This document shows positions 31,600 to 37,778 of a stretch of DNA of 64,000 nt, in pieces (position 1 is the stretch's first letter; the number at the start of each line of letters is the position of its first letter). The position numbers and the translations under genes are program-made. The stretch comes from a phage. The notes beneath the pieces are model-generated. The model saw only the letters and a list, made by a program, of their open reading frames with translations, searched no databases and was not told the DNA's origin. The stretch lies in sequence record PZ296772.1. The stretch is one strand, 5' to 3'.

Positions 31600-33042
31600 G
31601 TGGTAGAAATTATTTTGTCTCATCTCGTATATGACCAGGCTTATTTTTCTAAGGTCTGGCCTTATATGGATTCTGAGTATTTTGAGCGTGGACCGGCAAA
31701 AAATGTCTTTAAAATTATAAAGAGCCACGTTAACGAATATAATGCAATGCCATCCATCAATGCATTAAAGGTGGCTTTAGATAACAGTTCTTTAACTGAA
31801 GCCGAATATAAAGGAACTTCAGACCTAATTGAAAAATTGGCTGATACTCCTGAAGACCACGAATGGTTGGTTAAAGAAACTGAGAAATATGTCCAGCAAA
31901 AAGCGATGTATAATGCTACATCCAAAATCATTGAGATTCAGTCTAATGCTGAACTACCTCCAGAACAACGTAACAAGAAAATGCCTGACGTAGGAGCTAT
32001 TCCTGATATTATGCGTCAAGCACTTTCAATTTCGTTCGATAGTTATGTTGGACATGACTGGATGGAAGACTACGAAGCACGCTGGCTTTCTTATCTGAAC
32101 AAAGCACGTAAGGTCCCGTTCAAATTAAACATTCTGAATAAAATCACTAAAGGTGGTGCTGAAACCGGTACACTAAACGTTTTAATGGCTGGTGTTAACG
32201 TTGGTAAATCTTTAGGCCTTTGTTCACTTGCTGCAGATTATCTTCAAACAGGTCATAATGTTCTTTATATTTCCATGGAAATGGCTGAAGAAGTTTGTGC
32301 TAAGCGTATAGATGCAAACATGCTTGACGTATCGCTCGATGATATCGATGATGGTAATGTATCTTATGCTGAATATAAAGCCAAGATGGAAAAATGGCGT
32401 TCAAAATCCACATTAGGACGTTTAGTAGTTAAACAGTATCCTACCGGTGGAGCTAATGCTAATACATTTCGTGCATTGCTTAATGAGTTAAAACTTAAGA
32501 AGAACTTTGTGCCATCCGTAATCATGGTTGATTACTTAGGTATTTGTGGGTCTTGTCGTATCAGAGTTTACACTGAAAATAGCTACACATTAGTTAAAGC
32601 TATCGCAGAAGAACTTCGTGCATTAGCAGTAGAATCTGAAACAGTTTTATGGACTGCAGCTCAAGTAGGACGTGCAGCATGGGATGCTTCGGATATGAAC
32701 ATGAGCGATATTGCAGAATCAGCAGGTTTACCAGCAACGGCAGATTTCATGTTGGCCGTAATTGAAACCGAAGAACTTGCACAAGCTGAACAACAACTTA
32801 TCAAACAAATCAAATCACGATATGGTGATAAGAATAAATGGAATAAATTCCTGATGGGTGTACGTAAAGGCAACCAAAAATGGATTGAGATTGAGCAAGA
32901 AGGCATGAACACACCTAACACAGTAAATGAAAACGCAGGTGCTCAGATGCGTCAGGCAGAGGTGAATCGTACGGAACGCGTAGGTAAAGCCAAAGCAACA
33001 CGGGCTGACCTAGATAGCTTAGCCAATGAGTTAAAATTTTAA
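31600..33042 (+). CDS. 41: replicative DNA helicase gp41 (DnaB-like)
   Basis: 480 aa; Walker A GVNVGKSLG; GTG start with aaggag RBS. Confidence 0.92.
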   Translation: MVEIILSHLVYDQAYFSKVWPYMDSEYFERGPAKNVFKIIKSHVNEYNAMPSINALKVALDNSSLTEAEYKGTSDLIEKLADTPEDHEWLVKETEKYVQQKAMYNATSKIIEIQSNAELPPEQRNKKMPDVGAIPDIMRQALSISFDSYVGHDWMEDYEARWLSYLNKARKVPFKLNILNKITKGGAETGTLNVLMAGVNVGKSLGLCSLAADYLQTGHNVLYISMEMAEEVCAKRIDANMLDVSLDDIDDGNVSYAEYKAKMEKWRSKSTLGRLVVKQYPTGGANANTFRALLNELKLKKNFVPSVIMVDYLGICGSCRIRVYTENSYTLVKAIAEELRALAVESETVLWTAAQVGRAAWDASDMNMSDIAESAGLPATADFMLAVIETEELAQAEQQLIKQIKSRYGDKNKWNKFLMGVRKGNQKWIEIEQEGMNTPNTVNENAGAQMRQAEVNRTERVGKAKATRADLDSLANELKF

Positions 33043-33049
33043 TAAAAAA

Positions 33050-33072
33050 GGAGACTTCGGTCTCCTTTCGGG
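33050..33072 (+). terminator. rho-independent terminator followed by early promoter
   Basis: ggagac-ttcg-gtctcc hairpin, tttcgggg; gtttaca at 33073. Confidence 0.7.
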
Positions 33073-33131
33073 GTTTACATCTTCCTCTAGGCATGATATG
33101 ATGAACTTACACCAACCAAGAGGAAAACATT

Positions 33132-33506
33132 ATGAATATGTCTCAAGCAATTTTTACTGCAATCACCGAAAACAAAACTGTTGAAGTAGTTTCTCCGCTG
33201 GCAACCTACGTTATTCTTGCTCCTAAAACTATTGTATCTCGTATGGAAAACACGGGCAAACGTATCGTACAAATAGTTGGAGCTGGAAATCAAAAACTTG
33301 ATTATCTACGAACCATCAAAGCTTATGAACATTTCCAACTCGAAAAAGGTTCTCCTATCCAGGTAGAACTCGTAAATGGTGATATCGTTCGAGCAATGTT
33401 CCATCATTTCTATGCATTGAATGACCCATCTAAAGCGGTTCGTTTAATTGCATACGACGCAAACCAAAACGAAATCAACGCAGATATATCTAAATTACAT
33501 TTTTAA
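33132..33506 (+). CDS. hypothetical protein
   Basis: 124 aa; gaggaaaacatt RBS. Confidence 0.5.
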   Translation: MNMSQAIFTAITENKTVEVVSPLATYVILAPKTIVSRMENTGKRIVQIVGAGNQKLDYLRTIKAYEHFQLEKGSPIQVELVNGDIVRAMFHHFYALNDPSKAVRLIAYDANQNEINADISKLHF

Positions 33507-33557
33507 GTTTACTTCTCCAGTAGTTGTGTTATTATAGACCCTATCAACTACTGGAGA
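33507..33557 (+). promoter_or_regulatory. early promoter with flanking stem-loop (PeSL-like cassette)
   Basis: gtttac -35, tattat -10, flanked by perfect 13-bp inverted repeat tctccagtagttg / caactactggaga. Confidence 0.65.
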
Positions 33558-33562
33558 ACAAA

Positions 33563-33880
33563 ATGAAAACCATCGATTGTAAAGCAGAATTTAAGATTTT
33601 TTATCACGGTTCAAGTAGTTCAGCTAACATCAAAAACATGCTTTGTCCTCCTGAAGAAACAGGAGTTCTGTCTGAAACAGGACGTAAGAAAAACTTGGAT
33701 CGTGTATTCTTTACTGAAGATATCGGTTTAGCAAAGATTTATGCAGGACGAGCAGCACGCTCTTATGGAGGTGAACCACGTCTCTATCGAGTAATTTCTC
33801 CGGTAGATGTAGTTCAAATGAATGATACTAAAGGCGCTACAGTTTATCACGCTGAATGGGCATTTTGCGAGGAAATATGA
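33563..33880 (+). CDS. hypothetical protein
   Basis: 105 aa from ATG 33563 with ggag RBS. Confidence 0.5.
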   Translation: MKTIDCKAEFKIFYHGSSSSANIKNMLCPPEETGVLSETGRKKNLDRVFFTEDIGLAKIYAGRAARSYGGEPRLYRVISPVDVVQMNDTKGATVYHAEWAFCEEI

Positions 33881-34068
33881 GCAAATTAACTAAAGTTACT
33901 TTTATTGGCTGGTTTAAAAGCGGTGAGATGTTCACTAAAGATATCATGTTATCAGGCGACCGTGAAGAAATCGAGTGGGTTGCGGTACAACTTGCTGAAG
34001 TGAACAACGCATTAGTTAAAGCATTTGTTAATGACGAGAAAGTTTTTGAAGCTGATTTCAGAGGATAA
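33877..34068 (+). CDS. hypothetical protein
   Basis: 63 aa; gagg RBS. Confidence 0.45.
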   Translation: MSKLTKVTFIGWFKSGEMFTKDIMLSGDREEIEWVAVQLAEVNNALVKAFVNDEKVFEADFRG

Positions 34069-34282
34069 TATGTATTCAACTGTGTTTAAACCATCAACAT
34101 ACGAATTTGCATCAACTACACAATGGAAAGCTCTTATTCTGGAAGGATGGGAACTAATGATGGACTGTGAAGCATCTGAAAAGTTTCCACACGGCAAAGT
34201 GGACTTCGTTAAATTTGCTGTACGTCCGACTAAACGACAGATTCGTCAAGAAAAACGCAAATTTCGCAAAAGTTTAAAATAA
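34069..34282 (+). CDS. small basic protein with VRPTKRQ C-terminal motif (paralogue of 4638-4808)
   Basis: 70 aa; C-terminus AVRPTKRQIRQEKRKFRK. Confidence 0.45.
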
Positions 34283-34342
34283 CTGTTTACAAGCACCACA
34301 TACTGTGTTACTATCTTTCTATCAACTACAGAGGAAATTGAA

Positions 34343-34711
34343 ATGAAAAAATTAATCGCTTTAGCAATGGTATTTGGATTAACCGGATGTGGTGCCCATG
34401 GCTTTATTCCTAATAACGTTGGCCAACTGATTTACAATCCGAATGTTAAACAATATGAACAACCTAAAGTTGAAGTGGAAGACCCGGTTACTGTAGGTAA
34501 TCGAATGATTCAAGCTGATGCTCATGCTCAACGTTATCGTGATTCTGATACTGTAGCTATGTCAAAAGAACAACGTGTTAAAGAACATTGCTTACAGGCT
34601 ACTGAAATCGCATTCATTCGCTATGTTGAAACAACTGGTAAAGAGCCTACCCAGAAACAAATCGCAAATAACTACGTCCAGTGTATTGAACGTTTAAACA
34701 AATTTAATTAA
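34343..34711 (+). CDS. predicted lipoprotein
   Basis: signal peptide MKKLIALAMVFGLTGC with lipobox LTGC. Confidence 0.6.
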   Translation: MKKLIALAMVFGLTGCGAHGFIPNNVGQLIYNPNVKQYEQPKVEVEDPVTVGNRMIQADAHAQRYRDSDTVAMSKEQRVKEHCLQATEIAFIRYVETTGKEPTQKQIANNYVQCIERLNKFN

Positions 34712-34772
34712 TTGGTTTACACCAAAGTTAAAATAAGATACTATAAACATAACAAATCAAGAGGAAATTAAC

Positions 34773-35021
34773 ATGGAATTATTCGTGGCTAGTTCAGTAG
34801 CAGTTTTAATCGCAGGTATTGGTTCAATCATCATTTACATGTTGCCTTGGGTAATCGCACTTATTCGTGGCACAAAAAGCACAACAGCAATCTTCTTTGT
34901 ATCTTTACTCTTTAACTGGACGATGGTTGGTTGGATTGGAACTTTAATTTGGTCTATCGTTGCCGAAAAGAAATCTGCTCAGCAGCCTCAACAAGTAATT
35001 ATTATTCGCGAAAAAGAATAA
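34773..35021 (+). CDS. small inner-membrane protein (two predicted TM helices)
   Basis: 82 aa, hydrophobic; T4 Imm-like size and topology. Confidence 0.5.
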   Translation: MELFVASSVAVLIAGIGSIIIYMLPWVIALIRGTKSTTAIFFVSLLFNWTMVGWIGTLIWSIVAEKKSAQQPQQVIIIREKE

Positions 35022-35084
35022 ACTTGTTTACATTATAGATGGACTATAGTATAGTAGTCCTATCAAATCAACTAAGGAGTTAAA

Positions 35085-35378
35085 ATGAAAAAGTTATCAT
35101 TGGCAGCAATCTTACTCGCAGTATCATGTGCACCAGCTCCAGTTACGGCAGGTTATGATAAAGACCTCTGTGAGTGGTCAATGACTGCAAATCAAGAAGA
35201 TGTTGAACAACAAATCTTCTCTGATATCATGAACATCACTAAACGAGACCGTCCTAATATGGTTAATAAAGTTGTTGAACAACTTAAGTCTGGTGGTATC
35301 ATGCAGTACAATTATGTTTTGTATTGTGACCCTAATTTCGATAACAAAGATATCGTAACCGAAATCACAGGTGAATAA
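35085..35378 (+). CDS. predicted lipoprotein or secreted protein
   Basis: MKKLSLAAILLAVSCAP signal peptide with lipobox-like AVSC. Confidence 0.55.
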   Translation: MKKLSLAAILLAVSCAPAPVTAGYDKDLCEWSMTANQEDVEQQIFSDIMNITKRDRPNMVNKVVEQLKSGGIMQYNYVLYCDPNFDNKDIVTEITGE

Positions 35379-35379
35379 T

Positions 35380-36030
35380 ATGATTTATTACATGCACAAA
35401 AACGCGCCATTTAAATATGGTAAATTTCCTAATGCACAATGTTATAATATAACGCCGAATGAAAATAATAACGGTTATCATATTGGTGTAATTTTTGTAA
35501 TTGTTAAAGATAACGAAATCGTTGCCTGGGCTGATTTTAAAGGTACAACGTATGATGTTAATCCGGTGCCTTTCACATATTATAATATAATGGATTTGGC
35601 ATATGATTATAATTGGTTTAATCATGACGCGTTGGCTCATATTGAAGGTGTAGGATTTGACATCTCTTATTCTAGTTATTCATTATGTCCTATGAGCCGA
35701 GCTCACGGTAAAGATGCATCATATCTTTCATTTCGGAAACGTGTAAACTTCAAACGTAGTACAGAGTATGTCGGTGGACTCTTTGTTAAAGATAATAAAA
35801 TAACCCGTATTAGTTATCCTTTAAGTGTAGGTCAAAAAGATGTTGATGTTGATTTAGACTTAACCGAAAATAACATTAATCATATTGCTTCCGTGTATTT
35901 TGATATCGATGAAAAAATTGTAGTGTGTGGATACGAATTACCGCCTGAAGAAAAGGCTGAAACAATTGAAGTCGAATTAGAAATTTCTGTTGATGACCAA
36001 ATATTTAATGCATTTATGAATCGAGGTTAA
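35380..36030 (+). CDS. hypothetical protein
   Basis: 216-aa ORF; aggtg RBS. Confidence 0.5.
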   Translation: MIYYMHKNAPFKYGKFPNAQCYNITPNENNNGYHIGVIFVIVKDNEIVAWADFKGTTYDVNPVPFTYYNIMDLAYDYNWFNHDALAHIEGVGFDISYSSYSLCPMSRAHGKDASYLSFRKRVNFKRSTEYVGGLFVKDNKITRISYPLSVGQKDVDVDLDLTENNINHIASVYFDIDEKIVVCGYELPPEEKAETIEVELEISVDDQIFNAFMNRG

Positions 36031-36031
36031 A

Positions 36032-36229
36032 ATGACTACTGCAATTTGCACTGGTTCTAAAATTAGTGTTTTTACAAGTTTTGAAGATTACGAAGTTGTT
36101 TCAAAACACCAATGCCATATTAGCGTAAAAGCTAATGATGGTGTAATTTGGAATATTCCGCAGTATGAAGGCACTACATATGAAGTCACAGATATAAATG
36201 GTGACAAAGCAATCTTTGTAATTGATTAA
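36032..36229 (+). CDS. hypothetical protein
   Basis: 65-aa ORF coupled. Confidence 0.45.
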   Translation: MTTAICTGSKISVFTSFEDYEVVSKHQCHISVKANDGVIWNIPQYEGTTYEVTDINGDKAIFVID

Positions 36230-36248
36230 ATATACTCAGGAGGTACCT

Positions 36249-36716
36249 ATGGGTATTATTAACACTGCAATAGATTCTGTTTACGCATATAAGTTTATTC
36301 GACTAATGCAAAAACCTTTTACCGAATGGAAAGCATACGAAGCCAAAATCATCGATGAACGTGGAAGTGTTCTTAAACGTCCTTCTACTCCCGAAGAGAA
36401 AGCAGCGTATACACCTTTTCATGCTTCAGTTCGTTCAATGAAGCGAATGATGAGCACTGTTCCGGGTCTTAATGGAATGGCCTCAATGATGTCTGCCTGG
36501 AGTGCTGTAGCTTCACGCTATAACATTACGGAAGAACAACAGAAAGAAATATTTAAAGAACTCCCTTTATTTGAGGATATGGTTGCTGGTGATTCAGGTG
36601 GCAGCCCTCAAGCTATTGCATCAGGAACAACTACAGGTGCAGTCGTAAATAAAGGTCCAGAACAAATTCCTTCCAAGAAAAGAAAGCGAATTAAAGTAAA
36701 TATTAATAAGTTGTGA
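36249..36716 (+). CDS. hypothetical protein
   Basis: 155 aa; aggagg RBS. Confidence 0.5.
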   Translation: MGIINTAIDSVYAYKFIRLMQKPFTEWKAYEAKIIDERGSVLKRPSTPEEKAAYTPFHASVRSMKRMMSTVPGLNGMASMMSAWSAVASRYNITEEQQKEIFKELPLFEDMVAGDSGGSPQAIASGTTTGAVVNKGPEQIPSKKRKRIKVNINKL

Positions 36717-36755
36717 TATGATGGCCTTATTAATTTAAGGCCTCTGGAGAATACT

Positions 36756-37778
36756 ATGGCTGAATGGATAGATAATGAATTTGCGTATCGTGCGTTTTCT
36801 CACCTACCTCGTTTTAGACAAATCAATAATTCAAGCACATTTAAATTAACATTTCGTTGTCCAGTTTGTGGCGACTCCCAGACAGATGCAATGAAAGCTC
36901 GTGGATGGTATTATGGCGGTACTCCTGGTAATGTACATTGCTATAATTGTCAATACCACAATACAATTTCCGGATACTTAAAAGAATATGACGAAGAGCT
37001 TTATCGCGAATATCTAATGGAAGTTCGTAAAGAAAAAGCTAGAATGGAACCAAAGATTGAAAAGGTTCCTGAAGCTAAGCCGGAGCCAGAGAAAAAGACT
37101 ATAAATTCTTTGCCGTCTTGTTCTCGTCTGGACAAGCTGCCTGAAGAGCATCCTATTGTGAAATATGTTAAGTCTCGATGCATTCCTAAAGAATCATGGA
37201 ACAGATTATGGTTCACATTAGAATGGCCTAAATTGGTCAACAAGATTCAACCTGGTACGTATAAGAAAGAGATTCCCGAACCACGTTTAGTGATTCCTAT
37301 TTTTAATAAAGACGGGAAGGCTGAGTCATTCCAAGGACGTGCACTTCGTAAAGATGCTCCTCAGAAATATATCACTATTAAAGCGTTTGAGTCTGCAACA
37401 AAAATTTATGGTGTTGAACGTGTTAAGGAAGGGGACGTCTGGGTAATGGAAGGCCCTATTGATAGTTTATTCATACCCAATGCAATCGCTATTACAGGCG
37501 GCTCAATAGATTTAGATGTGGTACCATTTAAAGAACGTCGGGTATGGGTAATGGATAATGAACCTAGGCATCCGGATACTATAGCTCGCATGAAGCGATT
37601 AGTTGATGCAGGCGAACGTGTCATGTTCTGGGACCGAGCTCCATGGAGATCAAAGGATGTGAATGATATGGTAATGAAAGAAAATGCAACACCACAAGAA
37701 ATTTTAGAATATATGAAACAGAATATTTCAAGTGGGTTGCATGCTAAAATGAGATTATCTCGTTATTCGAAGATTTAA
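36756..37778 (+). CDS. 61: DNA primase gp61
   Basis: zinc ribbon CPVCGDS...CYNC; Toprim region; matches T4 gp61 from memory. Confidence 0.92.
   Translation: MAEWIDNEFAYRAFSHLPRFRQINNSSTFKLTFRCPVCGDSQTDAMKARGWYYGGTPGNVHCYNCQYHNTISGYLKEYDEELYREYLMEVRKEKARMEPKIEKVPEAKPEPEKKTINSLPSCSRLDKLPEEHPIVKYVKSRCIPKESWNRLWFTLEWPKLVNKIQPGTYKKEIPEPRLVIPIFNKDGKAESFQGRALRKDAPQKYITIKAFESATKIYGVERVKEGDVWVMEGPIDSLFIPNAIAITGGSIDLDVVPFKERRVWVMDNEPRHPDTIARMKRLVDAGERVMFWDRAPWRSKDVNDMVMKENATPQEILEYMKQNISSGLHAKMRLSRYSKI

Follow-up and report, generated by a model that had tools for sequence, protein, structure and literature searches.

Three small genes lie one after another on the + strand of the window, by which we mean the whole 64,000-nucleotide (64-kb) stretch of phage DNA analysed (sequence record PZ296772.1). 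An earlier note on this DNA had described three small consecutive open reading frames (ORFs) with either a lipobox or two membrane helices, and all three are present at the positions it gave, on the + strand. Judged by sequence, they are imm.1, imm and sp of an RB69-like phage of the T4 family, genes which are already known and annotated. The genes and the promoter motif in front of each are as follows.

34285..34314, + strand: early promoter motif before imm.1, GTTTACAAGCACCACATACTGTGTTACTAT (motif scan)
34343..34711, + strand: imm.1 (ORF1), 122-aa predicted lipoprotein, DUF5481 (Pfam, PHROG, BLASTP, RB69 annotation)
34715..34744, + strand: early promoter motif before imm, GTTTACACCAAAGTTAAAATAAGATACTAT (motif scan)
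34773..35021, + strand: imm (ORF2), 82-aa inner-membrane superinfection immunity protein (Pfam, PHROG, BLASTP, hydropathy)
35026..35055, + strand: early promoter motif before sp, GTTTACATTATAGATGGACTATAGTATAGT (motif scan)
35085..35378, + strand: sp (ORF3; spackle, T4 gene 61.3; sp/rIV), 97-aa precursor (Pfam, PHROG, BLASTP, PDB)

When a 4-kb query (33000-37000) was compared with phage records, it was found to be 99.2% identical in DNA to Escherichia phage PTK (Mosigvirus). The other full-length Mosigvirus records among the matches listed are 97.8-98.7% identical to the query, and 154 phage records cover at least 80% of it. All the top-ranked full-length matches whose taxonomy was checked belong to Mosigvirus, the RB69-like genus. 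The names imm.1, imm and sp are already given in the annotations of LR027383, PTK and RB69. In the RefSeq entry of RB69, the type phage of the genus, genes RB69p037-p035 are imm.1, imm and sp with the same order, sizes and names as in the window, and the two clusters show strain-level sequence differences only.

All three proteins match a Pfam family above its gathering score, and the PHROGs concur. Imm matches PF14373 (Imm_superinfect) with 56.9 bits against a cut-off of 27.9 over profile positions 1-42 of 42, and phrog_1039, "immunity to superinfection", with an E-value of 1.2e-30; its identity to T4 Imm is 64% (E 4e-37). Sp matches PF25676 (T4_Spackle) with 145 bits against a cut-off of 27 (E 1.1e-42, profile positions 1-96 of 96), phrog_1586 (E 2.9e-42) and T4 Sp (66% identity, E 2e-50), as well as the chains of the solved T4 Spackle structures 6x6o/6xc0/6xc1 and 7cn6/7cn7 (E 1.4e-39). 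For Imm.1 the values are lower, with 38.3 bits against a cut-off of 27 for PF17578, an E-value of 1e-28 for phrog_1754, and 33% identity to T4 Imm.1 (BLASTP E 3e-19). The search with PADLOC gave no match for any of the three proteins. The earlier note had proposed an exclusion function resembling that of Imm and Sp, and here Pfam, BLASTP against T4 and the RB69 annotation all agree with it. The relation can be stated more strongly than as a likeness to Imm and Sp, as the three genes are orthologues of T4 imm.1, imm and sp.

The gaps ahead of the three ORFs are 60-63 nt long, and each contains one GTTTAC-N16-18-TAnnnT motif. A T4-type early (sigma-70) promoter was defined as GTTTAC at -35, a spacer of 16-18 nt and TAnnnT at -10, located between genes on the coding strand. 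In the 64-kb window the + strand has 21 copies of the motif and the - strand has one, while first-order Markov simulations of the window give an expectation of 1.1 +/- 1.0 on the + strand and 1.6 on the - strand. The motif is thus well past chance and strand-specific and, because of the 21:1 strand bias against an expectation of about one, the promoters are real as a sequence class. The + strand sites have an A-rich upstream stretch in common, and most of them share a "...ctatca..." leader, with the Shine-Dalgarno sequence and ATG about 45-50 nt downstream. For the three ORFs, the Shine-Dalgarno sequence lies 6-9 nt ahead of the ATG, i.e. GAGG at 34331, GAGG at 34761 and AAGGAG at 35074. The claim that a gtttaca-type promoter precedes each ORF is borne out by the enriched motifs at 34285, 34715 and 35026. 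As individual sites, these three predicted promoters are motif matches only and do not imply firing. The same early motif is found before both imm.1 and sp in T4, and before sp in JS10. With a sigma-70 early promoter for each gene, all three products would be synthesised in the first minutes after infection.

A comparison was also performed in gene order. T4 has the order 43 - imm.1 - imm - 42 and, separately, 41 - dmd - 61.4 - sp - 61.2 - 61.1 - 61, whereas the order in the window is 41 - two extra ORFs - dmd - 61.4 - imm.1 - imm - sp - 61.2 - small ORF - 61.1 - 61. The statement in the earlier note that such functions lie elsewhere in T4 is therefore right for imm.1 and imm, which are located between 43 and 42, and wrong for sp, which T4 also carries in the 41-61 interval, between 61.4 and 61.2. 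In other words, sp has kept the place it has in T4, and the transposition concerns the imm.1-imm pair alone, which went from between 43 and 42 to the position immediately before sp. In the Mosigvirus records no gene annotated imm or imm.1 was found in the interval from 43 to uvsX. The imm gene of the window adjoins sp within the 41-61 interval, so that the upstream neighbour of sp is imm and not 61.4 as in T4. It follows imm.1 after a 61-nt gap with an early promoter of its own, while T4 imm begins 11 nt after imm.1 and has no own promoter; relative to T4, imm would have gained its promoter in this phage. Just upstream of the imm.1 promoter of the window there is "tttaaaataactGTTTAC", which is the sequence upstream of the T4 sp promoter, at the end of 61.4, and the leader after the imm.1 promoter resembles the T4 imm.1 leader. 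Recombination between early promoters is a mechanism proposed for T4-type phages, and these matches fit a relocation of this kind.

Two neighbours of the cluster are related to counter-defence. The dmd gene at 33877-34068 encodes an antitoxin against RnlA/LsoA-type toxins, and the 61.2 homologue at 35380-36030 matches the Pfam family AdfA (anti-DarT factor A) with an E-value of 4.6e-121. Because the cluster stands among such genes, the 41-61 interval can be read as an early-expressed block for phage-phage and phage-host conflict. An Arr-like identity (rifampin ADP-ribosyltransferase) was considered for the 105-aa ORF at 33563-33880 and was rejected, as there was no Pfam match at E up to 0.1 and no PDB match at E up to 10.

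Imm of the window is very similar to T4 Imm in its layout: the lengths are 82 and 83 aa, and both proteins have two hydrophobic helices, the loop motif Y-LPW-IAL-RG-S and a QVIIIREKE tail. The helices are uncharged and span residues 3-31 (34779-34865) and 36-64 (34878-34964), with a Kyte-Doolittle mean over 19 residues of up to 2.5 in the first stretch and about 1.6 in the second. They are joined by a short basic loop, R32-G-T-K35, and followed by a charged C-terminal tail. Residues Y22, L24, P25, W26, I28, A29, L30, R32, G33 and S36, which make up the loop motif, are invariant. Plasmid-borne imm alone reportedly gives immunity, a result attributed to Lu and Henning in 1989, and this argues that Imm.1 is not strictly required. 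From T4 genetics and biochemistry together with the 64% identity, the two-helix Imm would act in the inner membrane and stop superinfecting DNA from crossing the cytoplasmic membrane. T4 Imm is a plasma-membrane protein linked to exclusion and to resistance against the damage that secondary adsorption causes (PMC6832632).

We now consider Imm.1, the most divergent of the nine neighbourhood genes shared with T4 (33% identity compared with 55-86%). Its signal peptide is formed by residues 1-15 and is followed by the lipobox L-T-G-C with Cys16 (codon 34388-34390). The sequence ALAMVFGLTGC, with two Lys among the first 7 residues, follows the rule of the PROSITE PS51257 type, namely Lys/Arg in the first 7 residues, a hydrophobic core, and [LVI..][..][AGS]-Cys at positions 15-35. 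Among the ATG-started + strand ORFs of at least 50 aa in the 64 kb, only ORF1 and ORF3 fit this rule. The lipobox of Imm.1 is retained in T4, P0023 and P0025, while P0002 has a signal-peptidase-I-type A-H-A|S site instead. According to the +2 sorting rule of E. coli, a lipoprotein without Asp at +2 goes to the outer membrane. Since no Imm.1 homologue seen has Asp at +2, with Gly in the window protein, the predicted destination of Imm.1 is the inner face of the outer membrane.

In the AlphaFold2 model of Imm.1 the mean pLDDT is 63, rising to 74-90 over residues 71-120. The model consists of a flexible low-confidence N-terminal part and a confident C-terminal three-helix domain at residues 48-120, whose second and third helices contain the conserved Cys83 and Cys114, a probable disulfide pair. 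When compared with T4 Imm.1, the window protein has in common the lipobox signal peptide, the segments YNPNVK-Y and AQ-YR-SD, the Cys83/Cys114 pair and the position immediately upstream of imm, and it differs in lacking two features of T4 and P0002, an additional Cys pair and the segment "VV-x-SDVGK". The family is very small, and its members are restricted to T4-like phages. A word-indexed homology search returned only 3 matches, and an exhaustive HMMER search of 1.84 billion representatives returned 9, only 3 of them with an E-value of 1e-10 or lower. There was no sequence match in the PDB at E up to 1. Foldseek found nothing in the PDB at E below 1, which for a moderately confident model (pLDDT 63) is a weak negative, and in BFVD it returned Imm.1 proteins only at E below 0.001. 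A search of the literature gave no mention of DUF5481. One published comparison lists the RB69 group as lacking Imm.1 (PMC5885020). We account for this by the divergence of the protein, of which the reported absence is an artefact.

The neighbourhood of imm was then compared across phages. The imm.1 gene lies immediately upstream of imm in four contexts: T4, the window and two metagenomic loci, L004 and L005. The order in L004 is 43 - imm.1 - imm - a thymidylate-synthase-family gene (PF00303, the family of gene 42), and in L005 it is FRD3 - DUF5481 - Imm. More generally, a lipoprotein gene stands beside imm in six Tevenvirinae genera, which include the following lipobox proteins with a C-terminal Cys pair.

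Gelderlandvirus S16: upstream of imm
Klebsiella T4-like phage Lion_ER11: upstream of imm
Dhakavirus dhabil: immediately downstream of imm
Gaprivervirus UPEC07: downstream of imm, with one small ORF between

The proteins of Dhakavirus, Gaprivervirus and the Klebsiella phage carry the same mature N-terminal motif as T4-type Imm.1, G-[DE]-x-V-x-A-[SD]-E-[VI]-G-K, and that of S16 does so weakly. Full-length homology of these proteins to Imm.1 could not be demonstrated: the hhalign alignments were limited to the signal peptide and the very start of the mature part, and an HMM of mature Imm.1 did not separate them from background ORFs. Pairwise BLAST of the mature parts gave only a weak chain of matches. 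The lipoproteins of S16, dhabil, Lion_ER11 and UPEC07 are therefore taken as positional equivalents of Imm.1 and as its possible distant relatives. There are 1041 phage records with an Imm homologue and 657-691 with a detectable Imm.1, i.e. about 350 more for Imm; therefore, Imm.1 is not a universal partner of Imm at the sequence level.

Because imm.1 and imm move together and Imm.1 diverges quickly, we infer that Imm.1 may serve the same exclusion as an accessory or as one more layer in the periplasm, working with or alongside Imm. A different reading is that Imm.1 is independent of Imm, for example as a receptor-masking outer-membrane lipoprotein like Llp of T5 or in some other envelope role, and that the adjacency reflects shared early expression and inherited order. 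The predicted outer-membrane sorting would suit such a role, very fast divergence is expected of a protein tracking a variable target, and Imm homologues do occur without a detectable Imm.1. T5 Llp provides a precedent (PMC9586334). Llp resembles Imm.1 as a small early phage lipoprotein tied to superinfection exclusion; the analogy is functional only, with no sequence or fold similarity detected between the two (again a weak negative at a model pLDDT of 63). On the other hand, the imm.1-imm pair moved jointly in Mosigvirus, the adjacency to imm holds in six lineages even with inverted order, and in T4 one promoter serves both genes, which are only 11 nt apart. Also, Imm.1 resembles no solved lipoprotein in sequence or fold, with no significant PDB match. 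We consider an Imm.1 independent of Imm less likely than not.

Window Sp and T4 Sp agree in length (97 aa), in the layout of a 22-residue signal peptide, in the Cys29/Cys81 pair, in the gp5-contact residues, in the slot upstream of 61.2 and in the early motif. The signal peptide covers residues 1-22 (35085-35150) and consists of MKK, a hydrophobic core and a V-T-A|G site at residues 20-23. Cleavage after residue 22, which is established for T4, would leave a mature helical bundle of 75 aa in the window protein. Work by two groups showed that the mature 75-residue Sp of T4 binds the gp5 tail lysozyme domain in a 1:1 complex and inhibits it, and that the T4 endolysin is not inhibited (PMC7677548; PMC7650644). 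The residues named as contacting gp5 are S32, M33, T34, A35, Q37 and N76 (PMC7677548), and all six are kept in the window. As a result of the 66% identity and the retention of every named contact residue, window Sp can be expected with high confidence to act by inhibition of the gp5 lysozyme, as T4 Sp does. It would be exported via Sec, lose its 22-residue signal peptide, and as a disulfide-bonded bundle bind and inhibit the lysozyme domain of the tail spike gp5 of later-arriving phages, which would block peptidoglycan digestion and tail-tube penetration.

The earlier note had labelled ORF3 a second lipoprotein, and here the label contradicts experiment. N-terminal sequencing of T4 gp61.3 after release by osmotic shock placed the start of the mature protein at residue 23 (PMC7650644), and T4 Sp is, as far as has been shown, a soluble periplasmic protein and not a demonstrated lipoprotein. 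Nevertheless, the signal peptide fits the lipobox pattern with SLAAILLAVSC, in which the tetrapeptide is A-V-S-C (L-A-S-C in T4) and Cys15 has its codon at 35127-35129. Sp could then be a true lipoprotein in part: Lgt would lipidate Cys15, LspA would cut before it, an 8-residue linker would join the domain to the membrane, and the soluble form starting at residue 23 would be one of two products. For this reading, besides the agreement of the N-terminus with the PS51257 rule, it can be said that 18 Sp homologues, with identities as low as 47%, all keep Ser14-Cys15, whereas the other positions of the hydrophobic core are variable. The codons of the pair change synonymously across genera (TCA, TCT or AGT for Ser; TGT or TGC for Cys), and therefore selection acts at the protein level on both residues. 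The sequenced osmotic-shock fraction (PMC7650644) would also have missed a membrane-bound Sp. However, the T4 protein starting at residue 23 was a major soluble species of the periplasm (PMC7650644), residues 23-97 alone bind and inhibit the gp5 lysozyme (PMC7677548), and Pro19 and Ala22, which belong to the signal-peptidase-I site, are as invariant as the pair. A search of the literature found no paper terming Sp a lipoprotein. We consider a partly lipidated Sp improbable, and a soluble periplasmic Sp is retained as the reading that follows T4.

That the cluster is a lysis cassette, with a holin-like two-helix protein, a spanin-like lipoprotein and a periplasmic regulator, is hardly credible and was rejected: Imm is said to resemble a holin and mutants of sp and imm shorten lysis inhibition (PMC6832632), and small lipoproteins are typical as outer-membrane spanins (N4), but the families are those of Imm and Spackle and not of holins or spanins, the genes stand behind early and not late promoters, and the direct target of Sp is the gp5 lysozyme and not the endolysin.

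From the family matches, gene order and conserved residues together, the region is very probably the superinfection-exclusion module of a Mosigvirus phage, composed of imm.1, imm and sp, with mechanisms carried over from T4. The finding re-derives textbook T-even biology from raw sequence, and the reasoning from a lipobox, membrane helices and early promoters was sound. Its remaining value lies in two points, the lipoprotein that accompanies Imm and the Cys kept by selection in the signal peptide of Sp. A proposal covering both, which we regard as speculative and rather unlikely, is that the lipoprotein of the Imm.1 type is conserved, evolves fast and partners Imm in the periplasm, acting in the superinfection exclusion of T-even phages as a third layer or as a specificity determinant and overlooked since plasmid-borne imm alone gives a phenotype, and/or that Sp is partly lipid-anchored via Cys15. 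It is odd to find a selected lipobox inside a signal peptide whose known cleavage site lies further downstream, and this could be relevant to the placement of Sp in the periplasm. For the molecular mechanism of Imm, the conserved lipoprotein beside it offers a lead that is cheap to follow and can be tested.

The serine-cysteine pair within the signal peptide of Sp (Spackle) was found unchanged in 18 homologues, with identity as low as 47%. In the window, Ser14 is encoded at 35124-35126 and Cys15 at 35127-35129, and the codons differ synonymously between genera (TCA, TCT or AGT for serine; TGT or TGC for cysteine). Judged from these codons and residues, selection evidently acts on the lipobox-like pair, although cleavage of T4 Sp occurs further along, after residue 22.

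Lipobox proteins adjoining imm were also found in four other genomes, each with a C-terminal pair of cysteines:

Gelderlandvirus S16, L008 984-1472: lipobox protein, upstream of imm
Klebsiella phage Lion_ER11, L010 717-1160: lipobox protein, upstream of imm
Dhakavirus dhabil, L009 1852-2352: lipobox protein, immediately downstream of imm
Gaprivervirus UPEC07, L011 1567-2097: lipobox protein, downstream of imm with one small ORF between

The motif G-[DE]-x-V-x-A-[SD]-E-[VI]-G-K, which these proteins have in common with Imm.1, is clear in three of the four and weak in S16; it does no more than suggest homology to Imm.1.

P0026 (2133 aa) and P0027 (572 aa), found by the HMMER search, are long repeat proteins, each with several matches to the C-terminal part of the Imm.1 profile (E 2.5e-6 and 1e-3). 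The matched part is helix-turn-helix-like (window residues about 80-106, '...A-EIA--RY-E--GK-PT...'), and the similarity could come from a short helical repeat motif common to these proteins and Imm.1, or from composition by chance. P0003 (198 aa, ENA), from the word-indexed search, joins a DNA-polymerase-I-type domain to the final 28 residues of the window Imm.1 at 100% identity, a chimera most likely produced by assembly or gene calling. T4 Imm.1 (L003 10637-11014, NP_049661.1) is labelled 'iduronate sulfatase' in RefSeq, a name passed on to further phage records such as IME340 and vB_SenS_Jbel; no feature of the T4 sequence backs this name, which appears to be an annotation error.

Predicted counter-defence genes lie on both flanks of the exclusion genes: Dmd, the antitoxin and discriminator of mRNA degradation (33877-34068, E 2.4e-20), and the 61.2 homologue (35380-36030), whose Pfam match is AdfA, anti-DarT factor A (E 4.6e-121). 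Gene 61.4 (34070-34282) is DUF7279. Two ORFs lie between gene 41 and dmd:

33132-33506: RB69ORF041c counterpart, 124 aa
33563-33880: RB69ORF040c counterpart, 105 aa

Neither has a counterpart at this position in T4, and the Pfam search returned no match for either. The 105-aa ORF contains an 'FYHGSSS' motif; the resemblance to an ADP-ribosyltransferase was unsupported by Pfam or PDB sequence search. Just 3' of gene 41, a short GC-rich hairpin, gagacttcggtctc, immediately precedes an early promoter motif at 33073, and together (33051-33102) they look like a terminator/promoter unit. Such units have been proposed as mediators of module shuffling in T4-type phages.

The imm.1 promoter region (34285-34342) was compared with T4 at L003 4053-4112 and 11015-11100. 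The 5' flank matches the junction between 61.4 and sp in T4, while the leader resembles that of T4 imm.1, and by this comparison the region looks chimeric. Such a promoter region is consistent with relocation of the cassette through recombination between early promoters.
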